Virus record (IMG/VR): IMGVR_UViG_3300046820_002180
Span: 95,821-159,820 of that record
DNA length: 64,000 nucleotides
Direction: 5' to 3' (one strand)
Origin: a virus
Taxonomy: Duplodnaviria; Heunggongvirae; Uroviricota; Caudoviricetes
In this document: positions 22,019-58,522 of the stretch, one piece after another
Layout: every line of letters starts with the position of its first letter
Position numbering within the stretch: position 1 is the stretch's first letter
The notes under the pieces: generated by a model
What the model was told of the DNA's origin: nothing
The model's input: only the letters and a program-made list of their open reading frames with translations
Databases searched by the model: none
Program-made: the position numbers and the translations under genes

Positions 22019-22019
22019 A

Positions 22020-26485: not shown

Positions 26486-26684
26486 AGAACCAAAATACCT
26501 AACTGATTTTTTTATATATAAAAAGAAACATCATTGGTTTATGATACCAACAATTGTTTTCTTTTACAATAAAGAAACTTTTTTTGAGACCGGTATATCG
26601 ATGCCAGCGTGTGGTTTATCGTTTAGATGGTTAACATTTTTTATGGGTGTACAAATACAAAAAAATGCATACTACAAAAAATAA
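26478..26684 (+). CDS. Hypothetical small protein
   Basis: 68-aa ORF. Confidence 0.3.
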   Translation: MIKEPKYLTDFFIYKKKHHWFMIPTIVFFYNKETFFETGISMPACGLSFRWLTFFMGVQIQKNAYYKK

Positions 26685-27309
26685 GTTGTGGTGTTTTGGT
26701 GATAGCTATACACAAAGATATAACCCAAACGTCGATTGGTGTAAAAGTTACATCGATTATAAAGGTTATTTACCAAAAGTTTATTGTGATTTTTTAGGTG
26801 AAAAATTGGGGATTGAAAGTGAGAACTTAGGAGTTGGGGGATATGATAATTATTCTATTTTCGGAACCTTGTGTAATAACGTACATAGAATTAAAGAAAA
26901 TGATATTGTAATTATTGGTTGGTCGAGTGTGATTAGATTTAGACTTGCAGCTAAAGATGGTGATTGGGTGAAATTTGTACCTGGCACCGTAACGGATTAT
27001 CACATCACTCATCACACCGATATGTCAAGAAACACGATTGAGGAAATTTTTGTTAATAGAGACAATCCAATCTATTATAGAGAAGTCAATAATTGGATTC
27101 ATTTTATTAATCATACAATGAAGAAAAATAAAATAATTCATTGGACACCATTTGATGATAATGTTGATTTAAATGTACATAAGTTGTTAAAACTCGAGAC
27201 AATAAAAATGGATAGTAATAATATTGTTAATGATAATCACTATGGTGAGAATGCACATAAAACTCTTACCAATATATTTTTTGAATTACTAAAAGATAAA
27301 TTAATATGA
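26647..27309 (+). CDS. SGNH/GDSL-family hydrolase (paralog 4)
   Basis: KLWCFGDSYTQ block I, NLGVGGYDNYSIF block II, NDNHYGENAHKTLTNIF block V. Confidence 0.5.
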   Translation: MYKYKKMHTTKNKLWCFGDSYTQRYNPNVDWCKSYIDYKGYLPKVYCDFLGEKLGIESENLGVGGYDNYSIFGTLCNNVHRIKENDIVIIGWSSVIRFRLAAKDGDWVKFVPGTVTDYHITHHTDMSRNTIEEIFVNRDNPIYYREVNNWIHFINHTMKKNKIIHWTPFDDNVDLNVHKLLKLETIKMDSNNIVNDNHYGENAHKTLTNIFFELLKDKLI

Positions 27310-27671
27310 AAAATATAGCAATCAGACTTTCTATTGCAATAGTTGTAATAATGACTTTACTAATTATTACACTGAATAAACCGGACAATACACCTATAAA
27401 ATCTGATTCGGTTTGTAATGAAGATTCATTACGAAATGAAGTAATTAATTTACAAGGACAATTAGAACAACTAGAGGATGGTTTTGATAAAAAAGAGAGG
27501 AGATATGAAGACGTACTTTTTGAATACGAATATGGTTTAGATAGGATAAAAGAAACCCATCCATCGGCATATAAAGAATTTCATAGAATTATATCACACA
27601 AAGAAAGATACACCAATCAAGATAAAATTGAAAACGAAAAAAGATTAAAGATTTATGAACACACTAGATAG
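27306..27671 (+). CDS. Membrane-anchored coiled-coil protein
   Basis: N-terminal hydrophobic segment IAIRLSIAIVVIMTLLIITL followed by charged helical region. Confidence 0.45.
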   Translation: MKNIAIRLSIAIVVIMTLLIITLNKPDNTPIKSDSVCNEDSLRNEVINLQGQLEQLEDGFDKKERRYEDVLFEYEYGLDRIKETHPSAYKEFHRIISHKERYTNQDKIENEKRLKIYEHTR

Positions 27672-28749
27672 TAAGTATCAAGAATTATTACAAGACATTT
27701 TAGATAACGGTGTTGTTAAAACCGACAGAACAGGTACTGGTACTATATCAGTATTTGGTCGTCAAATAAGACATCGAATGTCACAAGGGTTTCCATTACT
27801 TACAACCAAGAAGATGGCTTGGAAGACAATGGTGACTGAGTTGATTTGGTTCTTAAGTGGAAGTACCAACATCAAGTATCTGGTAATGAATGGATGTAAC
27901 ATTTGGAATGGTGACGCATTTAAGAACTATACTAAAAAAATTAATGACGTTATTGATGGATATAAGTGTGGTGATATAATGGGAATGCAACCACACATAG
28001 AAGAGTGGTTTAGTGATTCAGATAAATTAACACCATTAACTCAAGAAGAGTTTATTGATAAAATAAAAATGAATGATGAGTTTGCCGAACATTGGGGTGA
28101 GTTAGGCCCAATATATGGTAAACAATGGAGAAGTTGGTTAAAAGTTGGTGAAGAGATTGACCAAATTCAAAACCTAATCGATGAACTTAAATCAAATCCT
28201 GATAGTAGAAGATTAATGGTATCTGCTTGGAATGTTGGTGAGTTAAACCATATGATTCTTCCTCCTTGTCATTATGGGTTTCAAGTATACACTAGAGAGT
28301 TAACAGGAGAAGAAAGATGGGATTTGTTAAAGAAGAAAGTTGGTGATGAAAGGTTTCAATTGATGGTTGATGATGTAGTTCCATTCGGTGGAGGGTTAAG
28401 TGAAGAATTACAAGCGTACAATATCCCAAAAAGAGCAATTTCATTAATGTGGAATCAACGTTCAGTGGACACATTTTTAGGACTACCATTCAATATAGCA
28501 TCATATGGTTTATTACTTATGATGATTGCGGATGAAATGAATATGGTACCCGATGAATTAATAGGGAATTTGGGAGATGTGCATTTATATAAGAACCACA
28601 TAGAACAAGCAAAAGAACAAATAAAGAGAGAACCATTTGATTTACCGACGGTACACGTTAGAGATGGTATATTTTCATTTGGGGGTCGGGATGTGATATT
28701 AGAGAATTACCAATCACACTCAACAATTAAAGCACCAATAAGTAATTAA
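27655..28749 (+). CDS. thyA: Thymidylate synthase (ThyA type) with insertions
   Basis: VKTDRTGTGTISVFG, RRLMVSAWNVGEL...LPPCH (active-site Cys), D..LGLPFNIASY and GDVHLYKNH motifs of ThyA. Confidence 0.85.
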   Translation: MNTLDSKYQELLQDILDNGVVKTDRTGTGTISVFGRQIRHRMSQGFPLLTTKKMAWKTMVTELIWFLSGSTNIKYLVMNGCNIWNGDAFKNYTKKINDVIDGYKCGDIMGMQPHIEEWFSDSDKLTPLTQEEFIDKIKMNDEFAEHWGELGPIYGKQWRSWLKVGEEIDQIQNLIDELKSNPDSRRLMVSAWNVGELNHMILPPCHYGFQVYTRELTGEERWDLLKKKVGDERFQLMVDDVVPFGGGLSEELQAYNIPKRAISLMWNQRSVDTFLGLPFNIASYGLLLMMIADEMNMVPDELIGNLGDVHLYKNHIEQAKEQIKREPFDLPTVHVRDGIFSFGGRDVILENYQSHSTIKAPISN

Positions 28750-33164: not shown

Positions 33165-34118
33165 ATGAAATACCTATCTGTCTGTAGTGGAATCGAAGCG
33201 GCAACTGTTGCTTGGTCACCACTTGGTTGGGAATGTAAAGGTGTATGTGACTTTGCAAAGTTCCCACAACAAGTTCTATCACATCACTACCCAAACACAC
33301 CTTTATTTACTGACATTACTAAACTCAACACGAATGAAACGTACAAAAAAACAAAATTCGACTTATTGGTCGGAGGAACGCCTTGTCAATCTTTTTCCGA
33401 TGCAGGACTCAACAAAGGAATGGATGATATCCGTGGTCAAATCGCCCTTAGCTATGGACAAATTCTTAAAGAAAAACGACCTAAGTGGTTCATTTGGGAA
33501 AATGTCGAAGGCGTTTTTAAAAGTCAACACAAAAAAGCCTTATGTGAAATCATCTCCTCTTTTACAGGAGTTGACTTCAGACCAGAAGACATCGAAAAAC
33601 AAGGGGTTGTCCAAGGGGAAAACTATTCAATCGCTTATAGGGTTTTCGACTCGCAATACTTCGGAGTTCCCCAACGACGCAAAAGAATCTATATTGTCGG
33701 ATATCGTGGAAAAGACTGGAGAGTCCCATTCTCAGTATTATTTGAAGAAGGATGTTTTGAAAGCGTTGAAGAAAAGAATAAACTCAAGAGGGATGAGTAC
33801 ACCAAAAATATTCTCGGACAAATTAAACTCGCTGGTACGGTAACCAAATCCTACGCAAGAACATTGGTTGATGGGTTTGGTAAAGTATCTACCTCAAACT
33901 ATTGGGTAGATGATAATGGTATCAGAACATTTACTGAAAGAGAACTAGAAAGATTACAAGGGTTTCCCGATGGTTATTTAGATTTTGAAATCAACGGGAA
34001 AAAACCAAGTTATTCTAATGTAAAAGGTGCTGTGGGTAATTCAATGACAGTTAATGTTATGTATTGGATTGGTCAAAGAATAAATTTTATTCACAATTAT
34101 TTGGAATCTTCAAAATAA
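33165..34118 (+). CDS. dcm: DNA (cytosine-5)-methyltransferase
   Basis: Motif I LSVCSGIEAA, motif IV GGTPCQSFSDAG (catalytic PCQ), motif VI ENV (WENVEGV), motif X GNSMTVNVM. Confidence 0.85.
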   Translation: MKYLSVCSGIEAATVAWSPLGWECKGVCDFAKFPQQVLSHHYPNTPLFTDITKLNTNETYKKTKFDLLVGGTPCQSFSDAGLNKGMDDIRGQIALSYGQILKEKRPKWFIWENVEGVFKSQHKKALCEIISSFTGVDFRPEDIEKQGVVQGENYSIAYRVFDSQYFGVPQRRKRIYIVGYRGKDWRVPFSVLFEEGCFESVEEKNKLKRDEYTKNILGQIKLAGTVTKSYARTLVDGFGKVSTSNYWVDDNGIRTFTERELERLQGFPDGYLDFEINGKKPSYSNVKGAVGNSMTVNVMYWIGQRINFIHNYLESSK

Positions 34119-45626: not shown

Positions 45627-46061
45627 ATGTATAATATGGAAGATAAAGAATATGTTGGTGATTTAATCTTACTACGAGGAGTACCTGGTTCAGGTAAAAC
45701 TACGGTTGGTGAGGTTATTTTGAGATGTGTAAGAGGTGATAATCCCGATGTTTTATCTGCGGATAACTTCTTTATGTCTGATAAAGGAATTTACAATTTC
45801 GATGGTTCAAAATTGAAAGAGGCACATAATGATTGTCTTTTGAAATGTGCTGAGAGAATGAAGAATGAGTTCAGTAGAATCGTTGTAGCGAATACATTCA
45901 CTGAAGAGTGGGAAATGGAGAAGTACTTTGAAATTGCTGAAAGATATAAATATCGTGTTCATACTCTTGTTGTGGAGAATCGTCACGGGGGTAATAATGT
46001 ACACGGCGTACCAGATGAAAAGGTCGAACAAATGAGAGACCGATTCAACGTTAAGTTATAA
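45627..46061 (+). CDS. P-loop kinase (polynucleotide-kinase/AAA_33-like)
   Basis: Walker A GVPGSGKTT in a 144-aa protein; sits next to a phosphoesterase and an RNA ligase. Confidence 0.5.
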   Translation: MYNMEDKEYVGDLILLRGVPGSGKTTVGEVILRCVRGDNPDVLSADNFFMSDKGIYNFDGSKLKEAHNDCLLKCAERMKNEFSRIVVANTFTEEWEMEKYFEIAERYKYRVHTLVVENRHGGNNVHGVPDEKVEQMRDRFNVKL

Positions 46062-46065
46062 TTTA

Positions 46066-46093
46066 ATCCCCGATTTTTCGGGGATTTTTTTTT
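46066..46093 (+). terminator. Rho-independent terminator
   Basis: ATCCCCGA tttt TCGGGGAT followed by a T8-9 run. Confidence 0.65.
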
Positions 46094-46149
46094 GATATTT
46101 TGTAATATCAATAATAATATGTATTTTTACGTAAAAGAACTTACTAACA

Positions 46150-46650
46150 ATGGGAACAAATTATTATCGAATTCCAACGGTGGAAGAGATGGAAAACAAA
46201 AAGACCAAACTAATTCGTAGTGTCACCAATTTAGACATATCACCATCTAACATTGAATGTGGATTTAGAGTTGCGGTTGACGACCAATGGGGTTCAGAAT
46301 CACCTTGGGATACATTTATTGACGGCACTAATATTCATTTAGGTAAACGAAGTAGTGGTTGGAAATTCTGTTGGAATTTTCACAACAACAAATACTACTC
46401 GAATAAAGAAGAACTACTTAAATTCATTCGAGATGGTCGTGTTGTTGATGAATATGGAGAAGAGTTAGATGTGAATGAGTTTATTGTGATGGCTCTTAAT
46501 TGGGGAGAACCTGATGGTTTGGTTGTTAATAAAGAGTATCGTAAACAAGAAAGAATAAAAGGTCACGGGTCATTTTGGACTGATAGTGAAAAATATGACG
46601 ATTTAATAATCGATGGACTTCGAGTAAGTACATCAACTGATTTTTGTTAA
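46150..46650 (+). CDS. Hypothetical protein
   Basis: 166-aa ORF between the kinase and the phosphoesterase. Confidence 0.45.
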   Translation: MGTNYYRIPTVEEMENKKTKLIRSVTNLDISPSNIECGFRVAVDDQWGSESPWDTFIDGTNIHLGKRSSGWKFCWNFHNNKYYSNKEELLKFIRDGRVVDEYGEELDVNEFIVMALNWGEPDGLVVNKEYRKQERIKGHGSFWTDSEKYDDLIIDGLRVSTSTDFC

Positions 46651-46654
46651 TAAG

Positions 46655-47308
46655 ATGATAAAGATAGAAAACGATGTAAAGGTTTGGATAACATCCGATA
46701 CACACTATAACCATAGTAATATATGTCGCGGAACTACCAAATGGAGAATGCCTGATGGTTCGATACCGATAGCACAAACAAGAGATTTTGAAACTATCGA
46801 TAAAATGAATTCCTCAATTGTAAACAACATCAATGAATTGGTAGGTCAAGATGATGTATTAATACATTTGGGTGATTGGTCGTTTGGTGGGTTTGAACAA
46901 ATAGAAGAATTTTACAATAGATTAATCTGTAAGAATATTCATTTAGTTTTGGGTAATCACGACCACCACATCGATAGAAATCGAGACGATATCCGTAATA
47001 AATTTCTAAGTGTTAATTGGTTTGAACAATTCTCATACCAAGGTGAAACAATAGAAATGTGCCACTATCCAATATCATCGTGGAATGGACTTCGTAAAGG
47101 ACGTGTTCATCTTCACGGACATTGTCATTTACCTAACCATAAAAAGTATAGTAATGGACGTAGAATGGATGTTGGTATGGATGGTAACCTTGAGTTCGCA
47201 CCATACGATTTGAAGAAGGTATTGAACGATATGAAGAAAAGAGAGATAGGTTCAGAACTTGGTGCCGATGACCATCACGTAGATGATATGTTAAACGTTG
47301 ACAGATGA
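46655..47308 (+). CDS. Calcineurin-like metallophosphoesterase
   Basis: WITSDTHYNH (DxH), HLGDWSFGG (GD) and VLGNHDHH (GNHD) motifs. Confidence 0.6.
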   Translation: MIKIENDVKVWITSDTHYNHSNICRGTTKWRMPDGSIPIAQTRDFETIDKMNSSIVNNINELVGQDDVLIHLGDWSFGGFEQIEEFYNRLICKNIHLVLGNHDHHIDRNRDDIRNKFLSVNWFEQFSYQGETIEMCHYPISSWNGLRKGRVHLHGHCHLPNHKKYSNGRRMDVGMDGNLEFAPYDLKKVLNDMKKREIGSELGADDHHVDDMLNVDR

Positions 47309-48501
47309 AATTAGAGACATTAGAAAAATATCACAAAGACGGGTTGTTACATAAACAGACTCACCCAACTCTCGATTTAACTATTTGGAATTATGGTCCA
47401 AGAGTTCAATACGAAAAGTTGTGGGACGATGTTACAATCCAATGTCGTGGATTGGTCACCAATTCAAAAGGTGATATTGTTGCACGACCTTTTAAGAAAT
47501 TCTTCAACTACGAAGAACATAAACCAGAAGATTTACCAAATGAAACTTTTGAGGTTTATGAAAAGATGGATGGTTCATTAGGTATTCTTTTCTATTACGA
47601 ATATGAATTGAGTGACGAGAAAAGATATAACATATGGTTTAATAACAATTATGAAACAGGTATGGAAAGGTTCTTTGACCCAAACAACTTACCTGATTTT
47701 GATAACCCATATTATGAACCAACACCAAAAACAAAAGGTGAGTGGATAATGGCAACTCGTGGTTCATTCACATCGTCACAATCTATTAAAGGAAAAGAAC
47801 TTTTAGATAGATATGATTTCGAGAGACTACATAAGGGTTACACATATTTGTTTGAGATAATTTACAAAGAGAATAGAATAGTATGTGAATATGATTATGA
47901 AGATATAGTTTTGTTAGGAATGATTGAAACAAAATCAGGAAATGAAGTTGATATTCGCAACAGTAATGAAGATATTCGTTTTCAAAATATGATTTCCAAT
48001 ATTGGATTTCGTGTTGTTATGTTATATAAAACTTGGGGAGAAGGATATGATTTGTTGAAGGAAGAAATATCAAATGATAGAGAGGGATATGTTGTTCGTT
48101 TCAAGAATGGTTTTCGTATGAAAATCAAAGGAGAAGAGTACAAACGACTTCATAGAATTTTAACCAATGTATCCAATCGTGACATATGGGAATATCTAAG
48201 AGCTGGTAAACCACTTGATGAAATATTAGATAAAGTACCGGACGAATTCTATGATTGGGTAAAGAGTGAAGAAAATAAATTTACACAAATGTTTAATATC
48301 ACAAAAACAATGGCGGAGTTAACATTTATGAAATTTATAAAACCTGAAATGTCTAGAAAGGAGTCTGCCCTAATTATAAAAGAACAAAAATTAGATTTAC
48401 AGTCACTCCTATTTAGGATGTTAGATAATAAAGATTACACGGATTTGATTTGGAAAAATCTTTATCCAAAATATTCAAAACCATTTAAAAAAGATGAATA
48501 A
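47305..48501 (+). CDS. RNA ligase (Rnl1-like nucleotidyltransferase)
   Basis: Motif I YEKMDGSL (KxDGSL, cf. T4 Rnl1 KEDGSL), motif IV REGYVVRF, motif V RMKIKGEEY. Confidence 0.6.
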   Translation: MKLETLEKYHKDGLLHKQTHPTLDLTIWNYGPRVQYEKLWDDVTIQCRGLVTNSKGDIVARPFKKFFNYEEHKPEDLPNETFEVYEKMDGSLGILFYYEYELSDEKRYNIWFNNNYETGMERFFDPNNLPDFDNPYYEPTPKTKGEWIMATRGSFTSSQSIKGKELLDRYDFERLHKGYTYLFEIIYKENRIVCEYDYEDIVLLGMIETKSGNEVDIRNSNEDIRFQNMISNIGFRVVMLYKTWGEGYDLLKEEISNDREGYVVRFKNGFRMKIKGEEYKRLHRILTNVSNRDIWEYLRAGKPLDEILDKVPDEFYDWVKSEENKFTQMFNITKTMAELTFMKFIKPEMSRKESALIIKEQKLDLQSLLFRMLDNKDYTDLIWKNLYPKYSKPFKKDE

Positions 48502-48982
48502 AAATAAAATTTACTTATATCTTGACGATGTAAGAACACCAACAGAAGGTGATTGGAAAGTAGTAAGAAACTATGATGAGTTTGTTACCCAAATAAGACT
48601 TAATGGTTTGGAAAACTATGAAGTTATATCATTGGACCACGACTTAGGTGAACTCTCAATGGTTGAATACTATACAAACGTAAAAAATAACTACACATTA
48701 AACTATGATAATATAGTTAATGAGAAAACAGGTTATGATTGTTGTAAGTGGTTAGTTGCTGAGAGTATGAATAAAAACATACCCTTACCACAGATATACA
48801 TCCACTCAGCAAACCCAATTGGTTCCGCAAATATGATGGGGTACATCAACAATTATTTTATGAATAGTAGATTACCTCAAACGTGTGTGAGAGTTCAAAT
48901 CCCACATACAATTGATGAGACGCATATGTTATCACCTGAAGCAAGAAAAGCTAAATGGGACAGAACAAATAACCTCAAATAA
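48494..48982 (+). CDS. Hypothetical protein
   Basis: 162-aa ORF; start overlaps upstream stop. Confidence 0.4.
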   Translation: MNKNKIYLYLDDVRTPTEGDWKVVRNYDEFVTQIRLNGLENYEVISLDHDLGELSMVEYYTNVKNNYTLNYDNIVNEKTGYDCCKWLVAESMNKNIPLPQIYIHSANPIGSANMMGYINNYFMNSRLPQTCVRVQIPHTIDETHMLSPEARKAKWDRTNNLK

Positions 48983-49033: not shown

Positions 49034-50116
49034 ATGTCAAAGATAAAAGAACTTAAAACCGACACACAAAATGTCTTAAATTTAATAGATGTTTTAGAGT
49101 TGTTCAGTCCTGAAAAGAAATCAAAGTACACAGACACGTTACTAAGATTAATGAGAAACACCAGTTCATTAGATGAACACATACTTGAAATCAAAACATC
49201 ATTGATTAATAAATTTGATTTCATTCGAATGGAGGATTTGAATAATTTTTCTGACATTCAAGTTTTATTAATGTTTAGATTTCTTGACGCGTTCTTTAAT
49301 TTTGAAGATTTAAGAAGTTTTAGAAAGTTTTGTGAATATAACGAAAGAGGTTTAATTTCACAAAATGATTTAAGTAAGTATAAATCATTTGACGATGTTT
49401 TAAATCAATTGAGTACGGCTGAAATGAAAGTCACAACAAAACAGATGGAAACCCAAATAGTTAAATTAATGGACACTGACGAGTGGTTAATTGTTAGACC
49501 ATTAACATATTTGGCATCTAAAAAATACGGTTCAAATACAAAATGGTGCACAACGTCAGAAGGTAATCCTGAATATTTTATCAAGTACTCAACCAAAGGA
49601 GTGTTAATATATTGTATTAATAAAGTAACAGGATATAAAGTTGCAAGTTTTTATTCATTAGATAAAAATGACCCTGAGTTTTCTTTTTGGAATCAAAAAG
49701 ATAGTAGAATTGATTCATTAGATACTGAATTGACTGACGAGATTAGACTTTTGATTCAATCTGTTTCTAAAGACAAGAAAGCAAAAACAAATAGATTTTT
49801 ATTGTCCGATGAACAAAGGGTTATCGAAGATAAATTAATGAAAAATAATTCAGATTTATTCAAAGAACCATCTCTCATAGGAGAAGAGTTAAGAGAAGCC
49901 ATTTCAATGGAAGAACCATCTCCAATTATGGAAGAACCGGTTCAAGAAGAGAGACAAGATAGATTAAATCCTTTTAATCAAGCAATTGAAAGAAGAAATG
50001 AAGAGAGAAGAGTAAGAGAAAGAAGGTTGATGGGTGAATCAGAAGAAAGAAATGAAGAACGTCAGTATGAAGATAGAGAAAATCAACCTCAAACATTCCG
50101 TTCAGGCTCACTATAA
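49034..50116 (+). CDS. Hypothetical protein with C-terminal Glu/Arg-rich low-complexity tail
   Basis: 360-aa ORF; tail EERNEERRVRERR...EERNEERQYEDRE. Confidence 0.5.
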   Translation: MSKIKELKTDTQNVLNLIDVLELFSPEKKSKYTDTLLRLMRNTSSLDEHILEIKTSLINKFDFIRMEDLNNFSDIQVLLMFRFLDAFFNFEDLRSFRKFCEYNERGLISQNDLSKYKSFDDVLNQLSTAEMKVTTKQMETQIVKLMDTDEWLIVRPLTYLASKKYGSNTKWCTTSEGNPEYFIKYSTKGVLIYCINKVTGYKVASFYSLDKNDPEFSFWNQKDSRIDSLDTELTDEIRLLIQSVSKDKKAKTNRFLLSDEQRVIEDKLMKNNSDLFKEPSLIGEELREAISMEEPSPIMEEPVQEERQDRLNPFNQAIERRNEERRVRERRLMGESEERNEERQYEDRENQPQTFRSGSL

Positions 50117-50127
50117 ACAAATATATT

Positions 50128-50628
50128 ATGCAAGTTAAACAATACAAAGTACAATTAAAAGAAGGTATCTGTACTGATATCTTTGATTCACCACAAGCGG
50201 CAATGAAGAAGTTTGGTTCCAACCTCGCTAGACTCATTGAGTATGAATCAAAAGTTAAAAAAGAATTAAAGGCACCGACAGATATCGCACTTTTGATTTC
50301 TGCAAGAAGTGATGCTGATTTAGAAGTATCGGTTTCTTGTGGTTATGCGGTTATGTATAATTGTCCAAATAAAACAAAATTATATGAAGGAATGCCGTAT
50401 CTTGAGGTATCTGAGAATAGTGTTTTAGAGGGTACGGTTATAAGATTAGAAAGTTATTCTAAATCATTACATCACCATTGGAAAGGTCCTGGTTATAGAC
50501 CTGACAAAGAATGGAAATGGGCAATCTACCACAAAAACTCTAAAATAATTCCAAGAGAAGTTGCTGAAAAAAAATACAACAACTCACTCAACGGAACTCA
50601 AGGTGGTATTAGTTACATCAAATATTAA
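50128..50628 (+). CDS. Hypothetical protein
   Basis: 166-aa ORF. Confidence 0.45.
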   Translation: MQVKQYKVQLKEGICTDIFDSPQAAMKKFGSNLARLIEYESKVKKELKAPTDIALLISARSDADLEVSVSCGYAVMYNCPNKTKLYEGMPYLEVSENSVLEGTVIRLESYSKSLHHHWKGPGYRPDKEWKWAIYHKNSKIIPREVAEKKYNNSLNGTQGGISYIKY

Positions 50629-50649
50629 TTAATCATAAAAAACGAATGA

Positions 50650-51015
50650 ATGATTAGTCCTTACGTTTATCCGGGTATTAAACAAACATTATTACCTAAA
50701 AAGAAGAGAATCAAAAGAAGTCTTATTTCCCCTGAAAAAATTATGAGTATCGTTGCAGAACATTGTGGCGTGACTGTAACTGAAATTCTTTCAAGAGGAA
50801 GAAAAAGAGAAGTATGTGACGCAAGACACATATTTTGCGCAGTAATGAGAAAAGAATTTTCTTACCCTTTAAAAAGTATTGGTGAAATGGTTAGTGGTAG
50901 AGACCACACAACCGCAATTCATTCTATCCAAACCTTCAATGATAGGTACAAAAATGAAGACGGTTATAAAGAATTGGCCGATACAATCGTTGATGACGTT
51001 TTCCAAAGAATATAA
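50650..51015 (+). CDS. DnaA C-terminal (domain IV) DNA-binding domain-like protein
   Basis: VAEHCGVTVTEILSRGRKREVCDARHIFCAVMRKEFSYPLKSIGEMVSGRDHTTAIHSI matches the DnaA helix-turn-helix domain signature (sR.r.i..aR.iamyl...t..sl..iG..fggRdHtTV). Confidence 0.5.
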   Translation: MISPYVYPGIKQTLLPKKKRIKRSLISPEKIMSIVAEHCGVTVTEILSRGRKREVCDARHIFCAVMRKEFSYPLKSIGEMVSGRDHTTAIHSIQTFNDRYKNEDGYKELADTIVDDVFQRI

Positions 51016-51050
51016 AGAAATATCTTTTATATAAAAAATACTAGATATTT

Positions 51051-51066
51051 TTTGGAATATTCAAAA
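51051..51066. promoter_or_regulatory. Near-palindrome TTTGGAATATTCAAAA (copy 2 of the TTTGGAATATTCCAAA element) followed by TATTAT
   Basis: One mismatch from the perfect 16-mer; 20 nt upstream of the 51086 ATG, with TATTAT between. Confidence 0.4.
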
Positions 51067-51085
51067 ACATTATTATCTTTGTGAT

Positions 51086-51646
51086 ATGAAAACATTAATT
51101 ATACATCCAGAGGATGAGAGCACATCCTTCCTCGACATTGTCTACAAAGACGTTGTGGATAAAACTGTTGTGAAAGGTGGTATGTCTAAAATGGACGTAA
51201 TGAACCTCATCAATGACCACGACCGAGTTATGATGATGGGTCACGGAAGTCCCGGTGGTCTTTTCTCCGTTGGACAATTCAAATATTCTGGTTGGAGAAA
51301 CACAGGTTATATCATTGACCAACATTGTGTACCTCTTTTAAAAGAAAAGAAAGACAATGTCTTCATTTGGTGTAACGCCGATAAGTTTGTTAACTTATTT
51401 GGTTTGAAAGGTTTCTACTCCGGAATGTTCATCAGTGAAGTTGGTGAGGCACTATATTGTGGATTACCTAACACACCACAAAAAATTGTTGACGAATCTA
51501 ATTACGGTTTTGTTAATATCATATCAAAATATATTAATGAACCAACCAATATCATTTATGAAAATGTTCGAAAAGAATATGGTTTAATTGCCGAGAATAA
51601 TGATGTTGCTGAATACAATAATATGAGACTATATGCATCAGAATAA
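51086..51646 (+). CDS. Hypothetical protein
   Basis: 186-aa ORF. Confidence 0.45.
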   Translation: MKTLIIHPEDESTSFLDIVYKDVVDKTVVKGGMSKMDVMNLINDHDRVMMMGHGSPGGLFSVGQFKYSGWRNTGYIIDQHCVPLLKEKKDNVFIWCNADKFVNLFGLKGFYSGMFISEVGEALYCGLPNTPQKIVDESNYGFVNIISKYINEPTNIIYENVRKEYGLIAENNDVAEYNNMRLYASE

Positions 51647-51974
51647 ACTTGAATTTGAGGCTTTAGATAAGAGATTTAATAAGTACAAAATAAAAGTCAA
51701 AGGAAGTTCTAAGTTCTTAACCGAGGATAATAAACACTTTAGAATGTGTTTTGAATCCAAAAACGAATTAGGGTTAGATAACACTCTTTGGGTTTTAGAA
51801 ACTGATGTTGAGTTCATTGCTGATAATTTTGATGTATACAATTACGAGGCTTCTGAAATATTAACTCAGTGGTTCTCAAACAAATATAACGTCAAAGTTA
51901 GTACAGTTGGTCAACTGATACCCGAATATGTTAAACCATTATCTATTAACTTGATTGAAAATGTCACAGAATAA
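51633..51974 (+). CDS. Hypothetical protein
   Basis: 113-aa ORF. Confidence 0.4.
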   Translation: MHQNKLEFEALDKRFNKYKIKVKGSSKFLTEDNKHFRMCFESKNELGLDNTLWVLETDVEFIADNFDVYNYEASEILTQWFSNKYNVKVSTVGQLIPEYVKPLSINLIENVTE

Positions 51975-52170
51975 TACCCAAGACGAGAAAAACATCTATA
52001 AAAGACAAATGATTCAAATGTCTGAAGATGCTAAAAAAACAATCACATTAAAATCGGAAATGATTTTAAATTGTTCTAATGATTTCGAGTTAGGTAAGAT
52101 GGTTAGAATGTTATTATATGAAAAAATAAACGCGTGTGATGAACATATAAAACACGTTAATTCATTATGA
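51955..52170 (+). CDS. Hypothetical small protein
   Basis: 71-aa ORF. Confidence 0.35.
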   Translation: MKMSQNNTQDEKNIYKRQMIQMSEDAKKTITLKSEMILNCSNDFELGKMVRMLLYEKINACDEHIKHVNSL

Positions 52171-52445
52171 GTTATAAAACTTTTAAAGACATTGAATTTA
52201 CTCACGATAGAGACGGACAATATTCGATGTTGATGTTCGAAAATCAATGGGGAGTTAGTGTAACAAGGTCTTTTGCTTGTTCCTTAGGTGCTGAACAGGG
52301 TTTGTTTGAGTTAGTTACATTAGATGAAAATGCTAATGTGGTTTACAACACACCATTAGTGGGACCTATTGGTTTTTTAACTGAAGATGAGGTAACTGAA
52401 TTAATGATTGAAGTTCAAAATTTTCCAAAAAAACAAATAATATGA
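52167..52445 (+). CDS. Small protein, paralog of the 57065..57340 ORF
   Basis: Shares WGVSV, (F/Y)EL..(L/V)...(N/G)..(V/L)YNTP and EDEVTELMIEVQNF/TDVTDIMSIVQKF blocks. Confidence 0.45.
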   Translation: MSYKTFKDIEFTHDRDGQYSMLMFENQWGVSVTRSFACSLGAEQGLFELVTLDENANVVYNTPLVGPIGFLTEDEVTELMIEVQNFPKKQII

Positions 52446-52735
52446 CAAACGTAGAAACAACTGAGGATTTGTATTATCCAGCAGCACAAAACTTTTTAAA
52501 GAGATATGCAATTGATGCTAGTGACCACATCGTCGATATCATAGTTTCTGTGATGAGAACAAGAGATAAGGTAGGATTTCAAGGAGGTGACTTTGTACAA
52601 TCAGTAGTAAATAACGACTTAACAAACGCAGCCCTTAGAGCTGATAACGATTGTGTTAAACACTTGAAAACATTTGTTTTAGCTTTACGCAATTGTTACC
52701 CTGTTGAGGAGATGGCATTCCATAAAGTAGATTAA
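52442..52735 (+). CDS. Hypothetical small protein
   Basis: 97-aa ORF. Confidence 0.4.
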   Translation: MTNVETTEDLYYPAAQNFLKRYAIDASDHIVDIIVSVMRTRDKVGFQGGDFVQSVVNNDLTNAALRADNDCVKHLKTFVLALRNCYPVEEMAFHKVD

Positions 52736-52749
52736 AGATATATATTGTA

Positions 52750-53502
52750 ATGAGTAAATTGTGGACATTTGGATGTAGTTTTACCGCTGAATATGATTTT
52801 ACATCGTATTTGAAACCCGGTCAAAGTGATGAATCTGAGAATAATAATATCAGATATAGAAAATATCGCGGTGGTGAGGTAAGTGATGTGTGGCCCACAA
52901 TTGTTGCAAGAGAATTAGGATTAGAAAAAGAAAATATGGGATATCCTGGTTTTTCTAACTACAGAATATTCAACAGATTTTCCGCAAACTGCCAAAGAAT
53001 CCAAAAAGGTGATGTGGTAATTGTTGAATGGTCGAGAAAAGAGCGATTCGATATTGTCAATAAAAATATGGGTAGACACCATCAAATGGTATCTGTAATC
53101 CCATCTGAAGCCCATAGTCACGTACAATATGATTTGGAGGTTATGCAACAAATCTTGGTTAATCGAACAAATCCTATTTGGTGTGAAGAGATTTATTCCT
53201 TTATGAAATTAATAAAGGAATTAAGTCTTGCCAAGCAATTTGAATTGTATTTTTGGTCGGCAGATAAAGAGATAATTAACAAAGAAGATAACTCATTTAA
53301 GTACAAATACAATTGTTTAGTACCTGAAGCAAACACTGATATGACTAAGTTCCTTCGTGAGTACGGTGCACAAAGTTTTCACGAAGAGACCAATAGGATT
53401 TTACCAGATGATGAACATTATGGTGAAGTTGGTCATCGAGTAATGGCGGAAACGTTTCTTAGAGACATAAACAGATATAGAAACGGATATTATAATGAGT
53501 AA
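52750..53502 (+). CDS. SGNH-family hydrolase (paralog 5; tandem array member 1)
   Basis: MSKLWTFGCSFTAE block I (Cys replaces Asp), NMGYPGFSNYRIF block II, DDEHYGEVGHRVMAETF block V. Confidence 0.5.
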   Translation: MSKLWTFGCSFTAEYDFTSYLKPGQSDESENNNIRYRKYRGGEVSDVWPTIVARELGLEKENMGYPGFSNYRIFNRFSANCQRIQKGDVVIVEWSRKERFDIVNKNMGRHHQMVSVIPSEAHSHVQYDLEVMQQILVNRTNPIWCEEIYSFMKLIKELSLAKQFELYFWSADKEIINKEDNSFKYKYNCLVPEANTDMTKFLREYGAQSFHEETNRILPDDEHYGEVGHRVMAETFLRDINRYRNGYYNE

Positions 53503-54241
53503 GTTATGGACATTTGGTTGTAGTTACACCGCAGAATATCATCCGGTGAGTTCTATGAATGGTGATAAAAACAACTATATGTTATATCGAGATTGGTTGG
53601 GTGGAACGTTACCTGAAACTTGGCCACATAGATTAGGTAGAATGTTGGGTATGGAGGTTGAAAACAAAGGATTGGGTGGTAGTTCTAATGACCATATTTT
53701 TGGTGCGTTCTGTGATAGTTGTGAAATGATAAGTGAGGGCGATATTGTTGTGATTGGTTGGACACAACTTGCAAGATTTTGGATTGGTAGTTATGATGAA
53801 AAACAATCACCAAAATTTACCGCAGTACTTCCGAATCTCACAAAAAATAGCGACATCAATTCAACTCATATGTCGACAGAAACATTAGAATTTCTTTTAG
53901 TTGAGAGGATGAATCCGTTATATGTTAAAGAAATATATAGTAGACAAGGTGTAATTGAAGAACTCTCAAAACATAAAGGTTTTGAGATATTTTTTTGGTC
54001 GAGTGATAGTAAAATTATCTATGATGAACCAAAGGAATTTAAAAATAAAAAAAAATACCTTTGTTCCGATTCTGTTGATGGTGTGTTAACACATCTAATT
54101 AGAAAAAGAGGAGCGAAAACAGTTGAGATGGAAACAAAGGGAAAGATACCTGATTTACATTTTGGTGAAATAGGACATCAGGTTCAGGCGGAAGTTTTCT
54201 ACAAAGAAATCTCCACCAAAATAAAAAAGAGTTTATTATGA
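53495..54241 (+). CDS. SGNH-family hydrolase (paralog 6; tandem array member 2)
   Basis: MSKLWTFGCSYTAE, NKGLGGSSNDHIF, DLHFGEIGHQVQAEVF. Confidence 0.5.
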   Translation: MSKLWTFGCSYTAEYHPVSSMNGDKNNYMLYRDWLGGTLPETWPHRLGRMLGMEVENKGLGGSSNDHIFGAFCDSCEMISEGDIVVIGWTQLARFWIGSYDEKQSPKFTAVLPNLTKNSDINSTHMSTETLEFLLVERMNPLYVKEIYSRQGVIEELSKHKGFEIFFWSSDSKIIYDEPKEFKNKKKYLCSDSVDGVLTHLIRKRGAKTVEMETKGKIPDLHFGEIGHQVQAEVFYKEISTKIKKSLL

Positions 54242-54843
54242 TTAGAGTAATATGGGTATTTGGTAATAGTTTCAGTAATAGTAGTTGGGTAACTCTATTA
54301 GGTGTGAAATTAGGACACCAAGTTAAAAACTTATCAAAAGATAAAACCTGCAACTATCAAATCTTTGATGATTTTTGTAGTGTATGTGACTTGATTCATA
54401 GTGATGATATTGTTATAATTGGTTGGGGTAATGTTTCTAATTTTAGAACACCATTCAATGATGAATTTATTAGTTACGGTCCAAATGATTTAGGTGACGA
54501 ACATATCGACTCAACATATATTGAGAATGTGGTTAGAGATAGGTCATCTGAAAAATGGTGTGAACAGATTTATTACTATGAAAATATTTTAGATGAACTC
54601 GCGAAATCAAAGAGATATAATTTGTTTTTTTGGTCAAGTGATGAGGATAGGTTGATATATCCAGCAAGACCATCATTCAAAGCAAAAAGAAGTTACTTAT
54701 GTAATGAGTCAACAACTTGTTTGGTTAAGTATTTTGAAGAGAAAGGTGCAACTGTAATTGATAATAAGTTCGATGAGGTTGGAAATGAAATAGTTGCTGA
54801 TAAATTTTATAATGAAATAAACACGAGGATACATTCTTTATAA
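54238..54843 (+). CDS. SGNH-family hydrolase-like protein, possibly degenerate (paralog 7; tandem array member 3)
   Basis: VIWVFGNSFSN block I retained, but block V reads FDEVGNEIVADKF with no His. Confidence 0.4.
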   Translation: MIRVIWVFGNSFSNSSWVTLLGVKLGHQVKNLSKDKTCNYQIFDDFCSVCDLIHSDDIVIIGWGNVSNFRTPFNDEFISYGPNDLGDEHIDSTYIENVVRDRSSEKWCEQIYYYENILDELAKSKRYNLFFWSSDEDRLIYPARPSFKAKRSYLCNESTTCLVKYFEEKGATVIDNKFDEVGNEIVADKFYNEINTRIHSL

Positions 54844-55538
54844 TGAAACTGTGGATATTCGGAGATTCCTTTAGTCAGAAGTTCAGTGACTTCGACCAAA
54901 AACTTTACGACCCTATTGATTATAGGGTGAGATACCATATTTGGAAAGGGTACTCTCCGAAGTGTTATGGTGAGATTATATCGGATAAATTGGAATGTGA
55001 TTTGGAAATATTAGCATCTGCAGGAAACTCAAATGATGAAATATTCCATAGTTTTATTGAGGTGATGGACCAAATTCAATCTGGTGACATTGTAATAATC
55101 AATTGGACATATCCTAATAGATTTAGAATTGCAGACGATAATAACAAATTTGAGAAGATTATGATTCAAGCGGGTTGTAAATCACCCAATAGATTCGTGT
55201 CCGAAAAAAGTTTGGAGGAGATTGGTGTAAATCGTAATTTCTCAAGTATATATTATAAGGAGGTTTCTAACTACACCAAAATAATAAAAAAGACTTGTGG
55301 TGAAGACATCCTCTCAATATTTTGGTATTTTTCTAACTTGAACATAGAAAGAAAATTTGACCAAAATGTCATTAGTTTTTTTGAAAATGTGATTCCATTA
55401 CACGAATATGAAACACTCACAATCGAGACATTGGGTGTGATGGAAGATGGTCACTATTCAGAAGATGGACATAAGGATTTAGCTAACGATTTATATAAAA
55501 TAATCGATATATGGACTCAAACAAAACAGACAAAGTAG
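54843..55538 (+). CDS. SGNH/GDSL-family hydrolase (paralog 8; tandem array member 4)
   Basis: MKLWIFGDSFSQ block I, SAGNSNDEIF block II, EDGHYSEDGHKDLANDL block V. Confidence 0.5.
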   Translation: MKLWIFGDSFSQKFSDFDQKLYDPIDYRVRYHIWKGYSPKCYGEIISDKLECDLEILASAGNSNDEIFHSFIEVMDQIQSGDIVIINWTYPNRFRIADDNNKFEKIMIQAGCKSPNRFVSEKSLEEIGVNRNFSSIYYKEVSNYTKIIKKTCGEDILSIFWYFSNLNIERKFDQNVISFFENVIPLHEYETLTIETLGVMEDGHYSEDGHKDLANDLYKIIDIWTQTKQTK

Positions 55539-55683
55539 CAAGAATAATTGCACTTATTTTTGCACTAGCAATTGGTGGTTTAGTATTTTGGACCGGTGGT
55601 ACTATACTTTACTACATCATAAAATATTCATTCTTTTCATAGTATCTTTTGGAATTTTAAATTTTATTCCTTATATTTTTTCT

Positions 55684-56001
55684 ATGAGAAGTTTCAAATT
55701 TTTTTCAGGGAGAAGTACCGGATTAGATTTAGACTCTTCACCTAGTTGGATATACGATACTCAGGTCAATTTACAAGGATTGGACTACCAAATCTTGACG
55801 GGAGAGTTTCGAGGTATTCACCAATTTCTTAATGAATACCCTAATAATTTTATTGTGGTTGTTAAATCCATTACAGGTAATGGTAGAACACATACCGGCA
55901 CTACCGAATATGGTGATGGGTGGGGTTTTGATATCACATCAGATTTGATAACTATTGAATATTACAGTTTCACGGATTATGACGATATTAATAACACCTG
56001 A
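55684..56001 (+). CDS. FKFF-motif small protein family member (start at internal Met MRSFKFF)
   Basis: Internal Met followed by RSFKFF; NFIVVVKSITGNG resembles the family's central motif. Confidence 0.4.
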   Translation: MRSFKFFSGRSTGLDLDSSPSWIYDTQVNLQGLDYQILTGEFRGIHQFLNEYPNNFIVVVKSITGNGRTHTGTTEYGDGWGFDITSDLITIEYYSFTDYDDINNT

Positions 56002-56218
56002 TGAATTAGAAGAAGAGTTTAGGGAGAGTTGGAGAATGGGGTTTATACAACAACCTTCTATCGATTATGCGGATAACGCAATCTACGCTAATTTTGAAGG
56101 GAAACAGCATATCATATTCAGATTCAAGGACTTAGGTTGGGTAAACGATAACCGATTTAATTCTTATACCATTTCTTCGGGGTTGGCAGGAATTATGATT
56201 AATATTATTCGAAAATAA
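55955..56218 (+). CDS. Hypothetical small protein
   Basis: 87-aa ORF. Confidence 0.35.
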   Translation: MNITVSRIMTILITPDELEEEFRESWRMGFIQQPSIDYADNAIYANFEGKQHIIFRFKDLGWVNDNRFNSYTISSGLAGIMINIIRK

Positions 56219-56234
56219 TTTGGAATATTCCAAA
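56219..56234. promoter_or_regulatory. Perfect 16-bp palindrome TTTGGAATATTCCAAA followed by TATAAT (copy 3)
   Basis: Perfect palindrome in the 35-nt intergenic gap; TATAAT at 56237-56242, ATG at 56254. Confidence 0.45.
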
Positions 56235-56253
56235 AATATAATAACTTTACACT

Positions 56254-56496
56254 ATGTTATTCAAATACACAATTAGTTTGGAGGTTGAGGTTGAATTTGA
56301 AGCACCATTGTTAGGTGCTGACAACACTAAACACAAAAGAAAATATGTGGGTTCAATAGCAAAGAAAACTCTACAAGAAATGGTAAGTCTTAATAGTACC
56401 TCATTAATTGTAGATAGAAACATCGAAGAGGATAATTTTAACGGAACAATTAAAGGTCACGTGCATTTAGGTAAATCAGAAAAGAACAAATATTAA
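56254..56496 (+). CDS. Hypothetical small protein
   Basis: 80-aa ORF directly downstream of the palindrome/TATAAT. Confidence 0.4.
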   Translation: MLFKYTISLEVEVEFEAPLLGADNTKHKRKYVGSIAKKTLQEMVSLNSTSLIVDRNIEEDNFNGTIKGHVHLGKSEKNKY

Positions 56497-57068
56497 TGGT
56501 AAAACTATACGTCACCAAGTCTGATATTAATAACGTTGTGAGTCAAAAGAATTTCACAAAGGATAATCGTATTGGTAAGATTGGTGAATATATGGCCGCA
56601 CAATATTTGATGGATTATAAAGGTTTAGAATTTGTAAGAGAATCAGAAGAGAAGGGTGATTTAAAAAAATGGGATTTAGAATTAAAATATAAATCAAAAC
56701 CATTTAAGTACGAAATCAAAACTGATGTTTATATTATACCGGGTAAGTGGTTTAAACCACAAGGATGGGACAGAGAGATATGGATTGAGGGAAAGGATAC
56801 TGGAAATATATTCATAGAGTTTCATAGTAGAGGAGTTGATTCAGGAATAACAACCACAACTGCAGATGTGTGGATGAATTTCTTTTTTCACTTGGATGAG
56901 TTATGGTCAATACCCGTAACAAAACTCAGAGAGATAATATCAAACAATGAGTTTCCAATATCAGAAGAATCGGGAGATATAAACAGTCACACGATGGGGT
57001 ATCTGATACCGAGAGAAAAATATAGAGAACATTTTAAAGTAATTAAGTACCAAAAAATAATAGTATGA
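56496..57068 (+). CDS. PD-(D/E)xK nuclease-fold protein (YraN/restriction-endonuclease-like)
   Basis: IGKIGEYMAAQYL...GLEFV...WDLEL...YEIKTD matches the G..GE..A..YL / D / E.K core of PD-(D/E)xK nucleases. Confidence 0.4.
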   Translation: MVKLYVTKSDINNVVSQKNFTKDNRIGKIGEYMAAQYLMDYKGLEFVRESEEKGDLKKWDLELKYKSKPFKYEIKTDVYIIPGKWFKPQGWDREIWIEGKDTGNIFIEFHSRGVDSGITTTTADVWMNFFFHLDELWSIPVTKLREIISNNEFPISEESGDINSHTMGYLIPREKYREHFKVIKYQKIIV

Positions 57069-57340
57069 AAACATTTAATGATTTGGTTTTTAACCCTCAC
57101 CCAATAAATAATGGGGTAGTTAGTCGTCTTTATTTTGGGAATGGGTATGGTGTATCAGTAGTTAAACACGACTACTCATATGGTAATGAAAAGGATTTGT
57201 ATGAGTTGGCGGTTGTTAGTGAGGAAACCGGAGAAATTCTATATGACACACCAATAACCGAAGATGTTGTTGGTTGGTTAAGACCAACAGACGTCACAGA
57301 TATAATGTCGATAGTTCAAAAATTCGATACAAGAAAATAA
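57065..57340 (+). CDS. Small protein, paralog of the 52167..52445 ORF
   Basis: See 52167; 91 aa. Confidence 0.45.
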   Translation: MKTFNDLVFNPHPINNGVVSRLYFGNGYGVSVVKHDYSYGNEKDLYELAVVSEETGEILYDTPITEDVVGWLRPTDVTDIMSIVQKFDTRK

Positions 57341-57648
57341 TGTCAAGAAAAAAATTACAAAGAATAATAAAAGAGTGGAATGAAGCCACTTCACTAGAGG
57401 TATGGGAAGGAGTTAGAGATAATTTTTTCTTTGGGTTTCTTGGTGCAACAATCGTAGTGTTTATATCCACAAGAACTGATTTGATGGTTATGGTTGGTTA
57501 CTTGAGTTATTACTATATGTTAGGTAGAATACAAAATAGACCAAGATATGTAACAAGTTTAGGTAAGTTAATTGTGTTCCCAATCCCATCAGCGCTTGGG
57601 GCATTTACAGGATATAAACTTTCATACTTAATTGAATCATTAATTTAA
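57340..57648 (+). CDS. Small membrane protein (start at internal Met MSRKK)
   Basis: Three hydrophobic segments; the upstream part of the listed ORF overlaps the previous gene. Confidence 0.35.
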   Translation: MSRKKLQRIIKEWNEATSLEVWEGVRDNFFFGFLGATIVVFISTRTDLMVMVGYLSYYYMLGRIQNRPRYVTSLGKLIVFPIPSALGAFTGYKLSYLIESLI

Positions 57649-57660
57649 ATAAACAAAAAT

Positions 57661-57888
57661 ATGAATCAGAATTTAATTAAAATGTTACAGACATCGGCGG
57701 AAGCGGATAAAGCGAAAGCATTACTATCATTAGACCTTTTAGGTAATAAAGGTGTTGGTATTGGTGACCACACAACAAAAGACTTCTACAATAATGCGGA
57801 AGATGCTCTTAAAATGTTGATTGACGCCGATGATAGATTAGAGGCAATTGAAAAATATTTCACATCAACCGATAAAAGTGATAGATAA
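57661..57888 (+). CDS. Hypothetical small protein
   Basis: 75-aa ORF. Confidence 0.4.
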   Translation: MNQNLIKMLQTSAEADKAKALLSLDLLGNKGVGIGDHTTKDFYNNAEDALKMLIDADDRLEAIEKYFTSTDKSDR

Positions 57889-58522
57889 TATCGAAAAAAT
57901 TAAGCAGTTATTAAATTTCTCCGAAGTCGGAGATTTTTATATGCTTTATGTTTTCAAACGCAAGAAGGACCAACCTGAAGGTGAGAAAGATAATCATCAG
58001 TCAGTCAGGACAATAAAGACATATTGTGTTGATAGTATCTCATATCTCGATATGAGATATGATGAGATAAAACAACTATGTGAGGTGTTTAAGGCAAGAG
58101 CATACATTCATATTCAAAAACAAAATCACAAAGATGTTTCATTGGATATGTTAGCAACCTTAGCTGAAAGAATTAAGAACGGAGTACAAAATCAAAAAGG
58201 ATTATTTGATTCCGTTGTTGGTCAATTAAAAACACAAGAGAAGAGATGGATTGTTGATATTGATAATCCACAAGTCTCACCACTAATGGTTGCTCATATT
58301 GAATATGGTTGTGAACCAATTACTGTTGTTGAATATGACGAGGTAGGAATACCGGTTGGGTATAAGGTTGGACCGAAAGTAGAATCGATTATCCCAACAA
58401 AAAACGGACATCATTTAATCACCAAAAAATTTGATGTTATGAAATTCAAACAAGAGTACCCTGATGTTGACATTCAAAAAAAGAATCCAACTTTATTATA
58501 TTACCCAAACAGTTTAAATTAA
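57848..58522 (+). CDS. Hypothetical protein (true start may be the internal Met near 57942)
   Basis: 224-aa ORF overlapping the end of the previous ORF. Confidence 0.4.
   Translation: MKNISHQPIKVIDNIEKIKQLLNFSEVGDFYMLYVFKRKKDQPEGEKDNHQSVRTIKTYCVDSISYLDMRYDEIKQLCEVFKARAYIHIQKQNHKDVSLDMLATLAERIKNGVQNQKGLFDSVVGQLKTQEKRWIVDIDNPQVSPLMVAHIEYGCEPITVVEYDEVGIPVGYKVGPKVESIIPTKNGHHLITKKFDVMKFKQEYPDVDIQKKNPTLLYYPNSLN

Follow-up and report, generated by a model that had tools for sequence, protein, structure and literature searches.

A 64,000-nt stretch of an uncultured AT-rich phage (IMG/VR record IMGVR_UViG_3300046820_002180, positions 95,821 to 159,820; the whole stretch is called the window here) encodes eight open reading frames (ORFs), lettered A to H in window order, that are paralogs and, as judged from predicted structures, belong to a large and so far unannotated branch of the SGNH/GDSL hydrolase fold. 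A first-pass annotation of the sequence had proposed such a family, with four members head-to-tail at 52750-55538; the eight ORFs do exist and, as described there, stand alone and have diversified, and the predicted structures support the fold. With moderate confidence, we further propose that these proteins are intracellular Ser-His(-Asp) esterases, deacylases or acyl-transferases that act on the products of a phage-encoded tailoring island.

Relationships among the eight ORFs and their predicted fold

All eight ORFs lie on the plus strand. Five of them, D to H, form a core that is mutually similar over full length in an all-against-all BLASTP comparison (1e-16 to 1e-56, 25-38% identity), with E matching F at 1.6e-56 and 38% identity, and D matching F at 5e-31 and H at 7e-29. 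Four core genes make up the head-to-tail array: E (52750-53502, 250 aa; FGCSFT in block I, GYPGFSN in block II, DDEHYGEVGH in block V), which scores 3e-83 with the hidden Markov model (HMM) designated A2; F (53495-54241, 248 aa), the structure-modelled and fastest-evolving copy; the degenerate G (54238-54843, 201 aa; FGNSFS, with SKDKTCN in block II and DNKFDEVGN in block V); and H (54843-55538, 231 aa; FGDSFS, SAGNSN, EDGHYSEDGH). Each stop codon overlaps the following start, by 8, 4 and 1 nt in turn, a sign of translational coupling. The remaining core copy, D (26647-27309, 220 aa when read from a GTG; FGDSYT, GVGGYDN, NDNHYGENAH), is dispersed and lies upstream of a ThyA-like gene; its start is probably the in-frame ATG at 26665 (214 aa), not the GTG at 26647.

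By sequence comparison, A, B and C are more distant relatives of this core. A (5218-6039, 273 aa; A-type, with YGDSWTEG, GVGGFSN and GKHPSNNGY) carries an inserted middle region and lies in an oxygenase-rich island. It matches the core in BLASTP over its first ~95 residues only (1e-13), scores 1.6e-14 with a five-copy core HMM that gave no other convincing match among window ORFs of at least 50 aa, converges on the core family in jackhmmer, and matches a ~210-aa subfamily from the arrays of other phages at both its N- and C-termini. B (9039-9812, 257 aa; B-type, with VGCSHTEG, GFGGRSND and DGKHA) has an N-terminal extension of ~60 aa and more than 572 homologues, and C (23930-24622, 230 aa; a C-type SGNH-fold paralog with TGCSHSS, RGGSNE and DSHFG) adjoins a glycosyltransferase operon, from which it is divergently oriented. 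In the all-against-all comparison B was marginal and C was not significant. The scores of both in a broad jackhmmer search (2e-33 for B, 4e-12 for C) are partly circular, their own homologues being in the search set, and hhalign and the model of C were therefore relied on instead. The B family aligned with the core family at 97.2% probability over 171 columns (E 4.4e-11), a stretch that runs from block II as far as the C-terminal His block, and the C family at 85% over 63 columns (E 6.4e-6). The pattern G[CDN]S[HFYWL][TS] near the N-terminus picked out exactly the eight, together with one spurious antisense ORF, among 302 ORFs of at least 50 aa, and a broad profile combined with a block I motif scan found no ninth member among the window ORFs.

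The SGNH-fold models are confident and have the three-layer alpha/beta/alpha, flavodoxin-like architecture of the fold. In the model of F, S10 follows strand 1, G61 and G62 follow strand 2, D220 and H222 precede the last helix, and an extra beta-hairpin follows strand 3. The closest viral structures in BFVD are free-standing proteins of 180-300 aa from uncultured Caudovirales, a few of them labelled as SGNH_hydrolase domain-containing. Free bacterial SGNH/GDSL and carbohydrate esterases, such as Nostoc alr1529 (1vjg), a B. thetaiotaomicron protein (3bzw), the CE2 and CE3 acetyl-xylan esterases, rhamnogalacturonan acetylesterase (RGAE, 1deo) and E. coli TAP (1ivn), share with the phage proteins a single-domain size, an N-terminal G-x-S after strand 1, the block II Gly, and a C-terminal, putatively catalytic His followed by a G-H/Y-x-x-x-A helix. 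The phage proteins differ from these enzymes in sequence (9-20% identity, below every Pfam and NCBIfam threshold), in their motifs (Cys is commoner in G-[C/D]-S, W-[S/T]-x-x-x-R-[F/Y] replaces GxND, an Asn lies past block II, and the His motif is D-x-H), in the extra beta-hairpin, and in being multi-copy and found almost only on viral or metagenomic contigs. A search of PDB sequences with the core profile gave matches at E>0.1 only, and alignments with enzymes of known structure served for register only. In the low-scoring RGAE alignment, S10 pairs with the nucleophile, G62 with the Gly of block II and H222 with RGAE His195; in a weak hhalign alignment (probability 2.6%) with TAP, the sequence of which was checked against 1ivn, S10 falls on TAP Ser10, G62 on TAP Gly44 and H222 on the catalytic His.

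Residue conservation was assessed in 217 family members, numbered as in F. In block I, G8 is conserved in 100% and S10 in 99%, and G-x-S is invariant in all eight window copies. Position 9 is Cys in 61% and Asp in 34% of the family, making GCS the majority form; in the window GCS occurs in four copies (B, C, E and F) and not in two, as first counted, with GDS in A, D and H and GNS in G. G62 of block II is Gly in 85% and otherwise Ala or Ser. Family-specific positions include the near-invariant N65, three residues past the block II Gly (98%), D83 (100%), and W89, R94, W168, E213 and T214 (each at least 94%, R94 at 94%). Strand 3 is followed in the family by W-[S/T]-x-x-x-R-[F/Y], the Arg of which is present in A, B and C too. 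In block V, D220 is conserved in 97%, H222 in 98% and H228, in the block V helix, in 85%. The Asp stands at -2 from the His (DxH) rather than at -3 (DxxH), and A and B have GKH without the Asp; the real block V pattern is D-x-H-[FY]-G-E-x-G-H, where D..H had been claimed. The candidate catalytic set of F comprises a Ser10/Asp220/His222 triad, Gly61-Gly62, Asn65 and Arg94. In G the Ser is kept and the glycines of block II, R94 and both His are gone, and these losses are shared by all seven related contigs (L001-L007). The first-pass annotation had noted the missing block V His of this copy and suggested a pseudo-enzyme; G remains a candidate for one, with more residues lost than first noticed, and yet it is under purifying selection.

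Age, selection and spread of the family

The array order of 250, 248, 201 and 231 aa is kept in independent metagenome assemblies (L001-L007), the array genes of which are 91-98% identical to those of the window in L006-L007, 78-98% in L004-L005 and 70-86% in L001-L003. Pairwise ratios of nonsynonymous to synonymous substitution rates (dN/dS) against orthologues were 0.03-0.06 for E (orthologues 86-98% identical), 0.10-0.22 for F, 0.06-0.18 for G (80-98% identical in L001-L007) and 0.06-0.08 for H; all four array genes, the His-less G included, are therefore under purifying selection. Orthologues of D are 91-94% identical in L042-L045. In a neighbour-joining tree each window paralog forms a clade of its own that takes in copies from distant contigs (15 loci for H, 18 for D and 6 for G), so that the duplications must long predate this phage, which in turn rules out an amplification artefact. 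The array thus does not consist of recent identical duplicates, the outcome that the first-pass annotation had said would undo its proposal: alignment, phylogeny and dN/dS gave 25-38% identity between paralogs, purifying selection and separate orthologue clades. As an observation on its own, F is 78% identical in aa (82% in nt) to its counterpart in L004 (5864-6610), where E, G and H are 93-98% identical in aa (94-96% in nt), and its faster divergence marks either a hot spot of local divergence or replacement of the gene. In L001 the H orthologue seemed truncated at its N-terminus, which was rejected as a start artefact of the gene caller.

The family is large. An exhaustive profile search found 4,760 cluster representatives (50% identity) at E<=1e-3, of which 313 were found at E<=1e-30, and nearly all of the 4,760 are free-standing and 200-270 aa long. 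A scan of IMG/VR gave 173 relatives on contigs of up to 335 kb. In 85 metagenomic and IMG/VR loci, with GC contents of 26.5-34%, at least two SGNH-like ORFs lay within ~20 kb in 62 and eight lay in one; arrays in AT-rich viral contigs commonly have 2-5 genes. Among deposited phages, a megablast search of window positions 50000-58000 against INPHARED gave no match, nor did tblastn of F and of B against 50,697 deposited phage genomes, which leaves the lineage without a sequenced isolate in that collection. A narrow pattern, which does not establish absence from cellular organisms, gave a single match in 185,579 species genomes, on contig JBMSJH010000004.1 of an Aquirufa sp. metagenome-assembled genome. 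That 22-kb contig (40% GC) carries adjacent SGNH-like ORFs at 23-856 and 853-1623; it may represent a prophage, a phage contig assigned to the wrong bin or the site of a cellular homologue, and gives no reliable clue to the host. No paper describing the family, or multi-copy SGNH arrays in phages, was found in the literature.

Gene neighbourhoods in other phages and in the window

In 78 loci in which neighbouring genes were clustered, and counted without a background control, the commonest neighbours were GT1-like glycosyltransferases (23 loci), 2-oxoglutarate (2OG) oxygenases (22) and a 500-aa unknown protein (21), followed by carbamoyltransferases (19), GT4 glycosyltransferases (17) and DUF5672 proteins (16); a glycosyltransferase, carbamoyltransferase or DUF5672 gene lay within 10 kb in 48 of the 78. 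Four loci (L008, L011, L013 and L019) have a fixed order of epimerase or glycosyltransferase, three to four SGNH genes, DUF5672, carbamoyltransferase, the 500-aa protein, 2OG oxygenases and a 263-aa protein. A link between the paralogs and tailoring genes, already suspected in the first-pass annotation, is strengthened by these arrays of distant phages, which adjoin DUF5672, carbamoyltransferase, glycosyltransferase, epimerase and 2OG-oxygenase genes. In each of the four loci the island lies at positions of about 8.5-20 kb and also holds two small ORFs. The C-terminal domain of P0303 was considered as a 2OG oxygenase from an HxD...H arrangement seen by eye and was rejected, BLAST against the window and the loci, Pfam and PDB sequence searches having found nothing.

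Components of this island flank A in the window (1169-7096), all on the plus strand: 2OG-Fe(II) oxygenase-like genes at 1169-1822, 1824-2393 and 6036-6602 (PHROGs), and the recurrent neighbour clusters cl9 (2393-3184), cl5 (3560-5050) and cl8 (6599-7096). The window has no carbamoyltransferase or DUF5672 gene, and the array has moved about 45 kb away. The gene at 3560-5050 encodes a 496-aa protein that has no Pfam or PHROG match, is kept in 21 loci beside SGNH genes and ends in a Cys/Trp-rich tail (CWCPWNYCGHWCNSWYCPSCS). The 263-aa protein encoded at 2393-3184 is kept in 18 loci, likewise with no Pfam or PHROG match, and its N-terminal FYLSLPRCASTAF presumably resembles the 3'-phosphoadenosine 5'-phosphosulfate-binding loop of sulfotransferases. 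At the left end, a Trp halogenase ORF (1-1167) is open at the window start and covers profile positions 148-414 only; the gene is therefore cut by the window edge.

A sugar-tailoring operon on the minus strand (16937-23375) encodes a GT2 glycosyltransferase, an NAD-dependent epimerase/dehydratase, two GT1/GT4 glycosyltransferases and small ORFs (Pfam), and its gene clusters turn up again beside SGNH arrays on distant contigs. GC skew is positive across the window except at ~16.9-23.4 kb, which is this single minus-strand glycosyltransferase operon. The tail-fibre gene (9867-14705, plus strand, 1612 aa) has a C-terminal Peptidase_S74 chaperone domain; the fibre carries Peptidase_S74 and coiled-coil matches only in Pfam, with no SGNH domain. 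Just downstream of D, a thymidylate-synthase homologue (27655-28749) of 364 aa covers the full 266-position Pfam profile and therefore holds ~100 inserted aa; it may be a nucleotide hydroxymethylase and not ThyA, and two DNA methylase genes (24624-25325 and 33165-34118) lie near it. Directly upstream of the array region is an RNA-repair-like module (45627-48982) with a T4 Rnl1-type RNA ligase (47305-48501) and a cREC_REC cyclic-phosphate receiver domain (48494-48982) recognised by Pfam in the window; an AAA_33 kinase and a metallophosphatase of this module are suggested by the syntenic genes of L001 and L002 only. Among INPHARED phages the window RNA ligase has matches of only ~32-34% identity, in actinophages. 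A promoter and terminator scan around the array gave no more sites than shuffled sequence, and no tRNA genes were found in window positions 1-64000.

Possible roles of the paralogs

A Kyte-Doolittle scan found no hydrophobic or transmembrane segment and no signal peptide in any of the eight paralogs, and because they also have no fibre domain we infer that they act inside the cell. In the active copies, the Ser of the N-terminal G-[C/D]-S, placed after strand 1 in the model, would attack an ester, with the His of the C-terminal D-x-H as general base and the oxyanion held by the backbone NH of the Ser and by the block II Gly. The invariant Asn (GGxxN) or the Arg ([S/T]xxxR) perhaps replaces the canonical block III Asn. 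Likely substrates would be sugar or small-molecule intermediates from the tailoring island, which combines glycosyltransferases, an epimerase and 2OG oxygenases, and in relatives a carbamoyltransferase, and different paralogs may serve different substrates or positions. E to H would form an old, translationally coupled operon, in which a catalytically dead G would probably be a binding or scaffolding partner. Acyl transfer was considered through comparison with the SGNH-fold O-acyltransferases PatB, the OatA C-domain, WssI/AlgX and SsfX3. Enzymes of the PatB, OatA and AlgX types are extracytoplasmic and need a membrane MBOAT or AT3 partner. In contrast, the phage proteins have no export signal in eight of eight, and no membrane protein is encoded near any copy, none of 29 neighbouring ORFs encoding a polytopic membrane protein in a Kyte-Doolittle scan.

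Several observations weigh against assigning such enzymes to this fold and this task. All eight copies score below the Pfam gathering thresholds of Lipase_GDSL, Lipase_GDSL_2 and DUF6071, the best matches being 25.6 bits for DUF6071 (cutoff 27), ~18 for Lipase_GDSL_2 (32.9) and ~17 for Lipase_GDSL (23.6). DUF6071 is the best sub-threshold match of A (1.2e-5, 25.6 bits, with Lipase_GDSL_2 at 0.006) and of E (0.0015); it is itself uncharacterised, and no paper mentioning it was found in the literature. Among 40 scanned members, Lipase_GDSL was matched by six (best 6.8e-5), and DUF6071 and Lipase_GDSL_2 by three each; the relative P0322 covers the whole Lipase_GDSL profile at 22.6 bits (cutoff 23.6). 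PHROGs, NCBIfam and PADLOC gave nothing meaningful for the eight ORFs, and all public copies are named "hypothetical protein". Failure to match SGNH profiles was an outcome that the first-pass annotation had named as refuting it; with no match above threshold, it is predicted structure alone that rescues the assignment. Block III GxND is missing, no conserved Asn following strand 3 in either possible register, and since the conserved Asp and His depart from the DxxH spacing as well, catalytic competence is not guaranteed. The E-H array lies ~30 kb from the nearest tailoring genes of the window, beside RNA ligase, cREC_REC, DnaA-C-like and small early-type genes, so that guilt by association comes from other phages, in which the neighbour counts are raw. 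Finally, packaging into the virion, which may occur, is compatible with the lack of a signal peptide.

Virion-borne or released copies are central to the idea, raised in the first-pass annotation, that the paralogs form a receptor-modifying, host-range repertoire that deacetylates different host surface polysaccharides. B lies 55 nt upstream of the gene for the 1612-aa tail fibre, and diversified paralogs would fit varied receptors. The known phage examples are built differently: tail-fibre and tailspike deacetylases (G7C gp63.1, 4qnl, and those of Acinetobacter and Pectobacterium phage fibres) are single domains inside large trimeric structural proteins, while the window encodes eight free-standing single-domain proteins of 201-273 aa, none fused to a fibre, adaptor or trimerisation domain and none with a signal or transmembrane segment. 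Fibre esterases also rank below free bacterial esterases as structural matches, the four-gene array sits among RNA-repair and small early-type genes, and the arrays of other phages lie within biosynthetic gene sets and not within structural modules. We found no positive evidence for a role in host range and consider it unlikely. The accompanying statement that phage SGNH domains usually occur once and fused to tail fibres was too strong, since NanS-p of Stx prophages is a non-fibre SGNH esterase (PMC10462455). Like the window proteins, NanS-p belongs to the SGNH superfamily, is encoded by a phage without being part of a fibre and has variant block motifs; it is a protein of 645 aa with DUF1737, SASA and a C-terminal region, encoded by one gene per phage (PMC10462455), whereas the window has eight genes in 64 kb, and no copy matched DUF1737 or SASA (PF03629) at E<=1.

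Structural matches to the peptidoglycan O-acetylesterase Ape1, acyloxyacyl hydrolase, lysophospholipases and thioesterase-type GDSL enzymes, together with an M23 peptidase/peptidoglycan-binding protein encoded in the window, would accord with an attack on the host envelope or its lipids. In such a takeover, peptidoglycan O-acetyl groups, lipopolysaccharide or lipid A, phospholipids, or acyl-CoA and acyl carrier protein would be deacylated from the cytoplasmic side or at lysis, and the purpose would be to aid lysis, block superinfection or reroute metabolism. Peptidoglycan and lipopolysaccharide are extracytoplasmic, yet the paralogs carry no export signals; they are not linked to lysis genes, and in other phages they are consistently linked to glycosyltransferase, carbamoyltransferase and oxygenase genes, which points to a substrate made by the phage. 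We regard an envelope target as improbable.

A phage-made substrate could also be a peptide. The SGNH-like hydrolase CgnD serves a peptide pathway, crocagin biosynthesis, together with a dioxygenase and a carbamoyltransferase, and clusters of this type bring together a hydrolase and a dioxygenase with a carbamoyltransferase or glycosyltransferase (PMC10070186). By analogy, the paralogs would be leader-peptide or ester hydrolases in the tailoring of a product resembling RiPPs (peptides made on the ribosome and modified after translation), and the window island does hold a Trp halogenase, several 2OG oxygenases and the 496-aa protein with its Cys/Trp-rich tail. Against this, CgnD was no closer a match than ordinary carbohydrate esterases, no precursor peptide or CgnB/E-like binding protein was identified, and the sugar epimerase/dehydratase and several glycosyltransferases favour a glycan; peptide tailoring is, in our judgement, highly improbable. 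That there is no real family, its motifs being due to chance and its ORFs non-coding or the product of recent amplification or misassembly, would agree with the silence of curated profiles and is refuted by the highly significant mutual similarity, confident SGNH-fold models, thousands of homologues, 25-38% identity between paralogs and purifying selection on orthologues in independent assemblies.

Within the preferred reading of intracellular enzymes serving a tailoring island, catalytically dead paralogs recur. Besides G, a second and independent dead class occurs in 3-5-gene arrays of another lineage, in which Asn stands in place of the block I Ser (GDN) and, in some copies, of the block V His as well; its members are found at 2500-3171 in L030, 9998-10669 in L031, 9989-10675 in L032, 1358-2041 in L038, 8772-9455 in L039 and 9373-10086 in L041. 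In addition, three cluster representatives (P0322, P0330 and P0357; 504-577 aa) are SGNH-SGNH fusions of a divergent N-terminal copy with a core-type copy. Dead paralogs, coupling and fusions together hint, speculatively, that the paralogs act together physically. Taken furthest, the arrays would be obligate enzyme/pseudo-enzyme assemblies, an SGNH machine of several subunits that acts on a glycan or peptide metabolite from an undescribed biosynthetic island shared by AT-rich large phages, either processing it or proof-reading its acylation or carbamoylation. We doubt that so much is true; if it were, the arrays would represent a new phage-encoded pathway and not a redundant set of esterases.

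The result is a well-supported annotation, not a new mechanism. A family of thousands of clusters, unseen by Pfam, NCBIfam and PHROGs, now has a place in the SGNH fold and a defined set of variant motifs, and it has expanded repeatedly into tandem arrays, which is unusual among phages. The family may yield esterases of new specificity and an example of natural enzyme/pseudo-enzyme pairing. The association of the arrays with tailoring genes suggests that uncultured AT-rich large phages make or remodel an acylated product during infection, and the substrate, if identified, would account for a considerable set of "dark" genes in their genomes.

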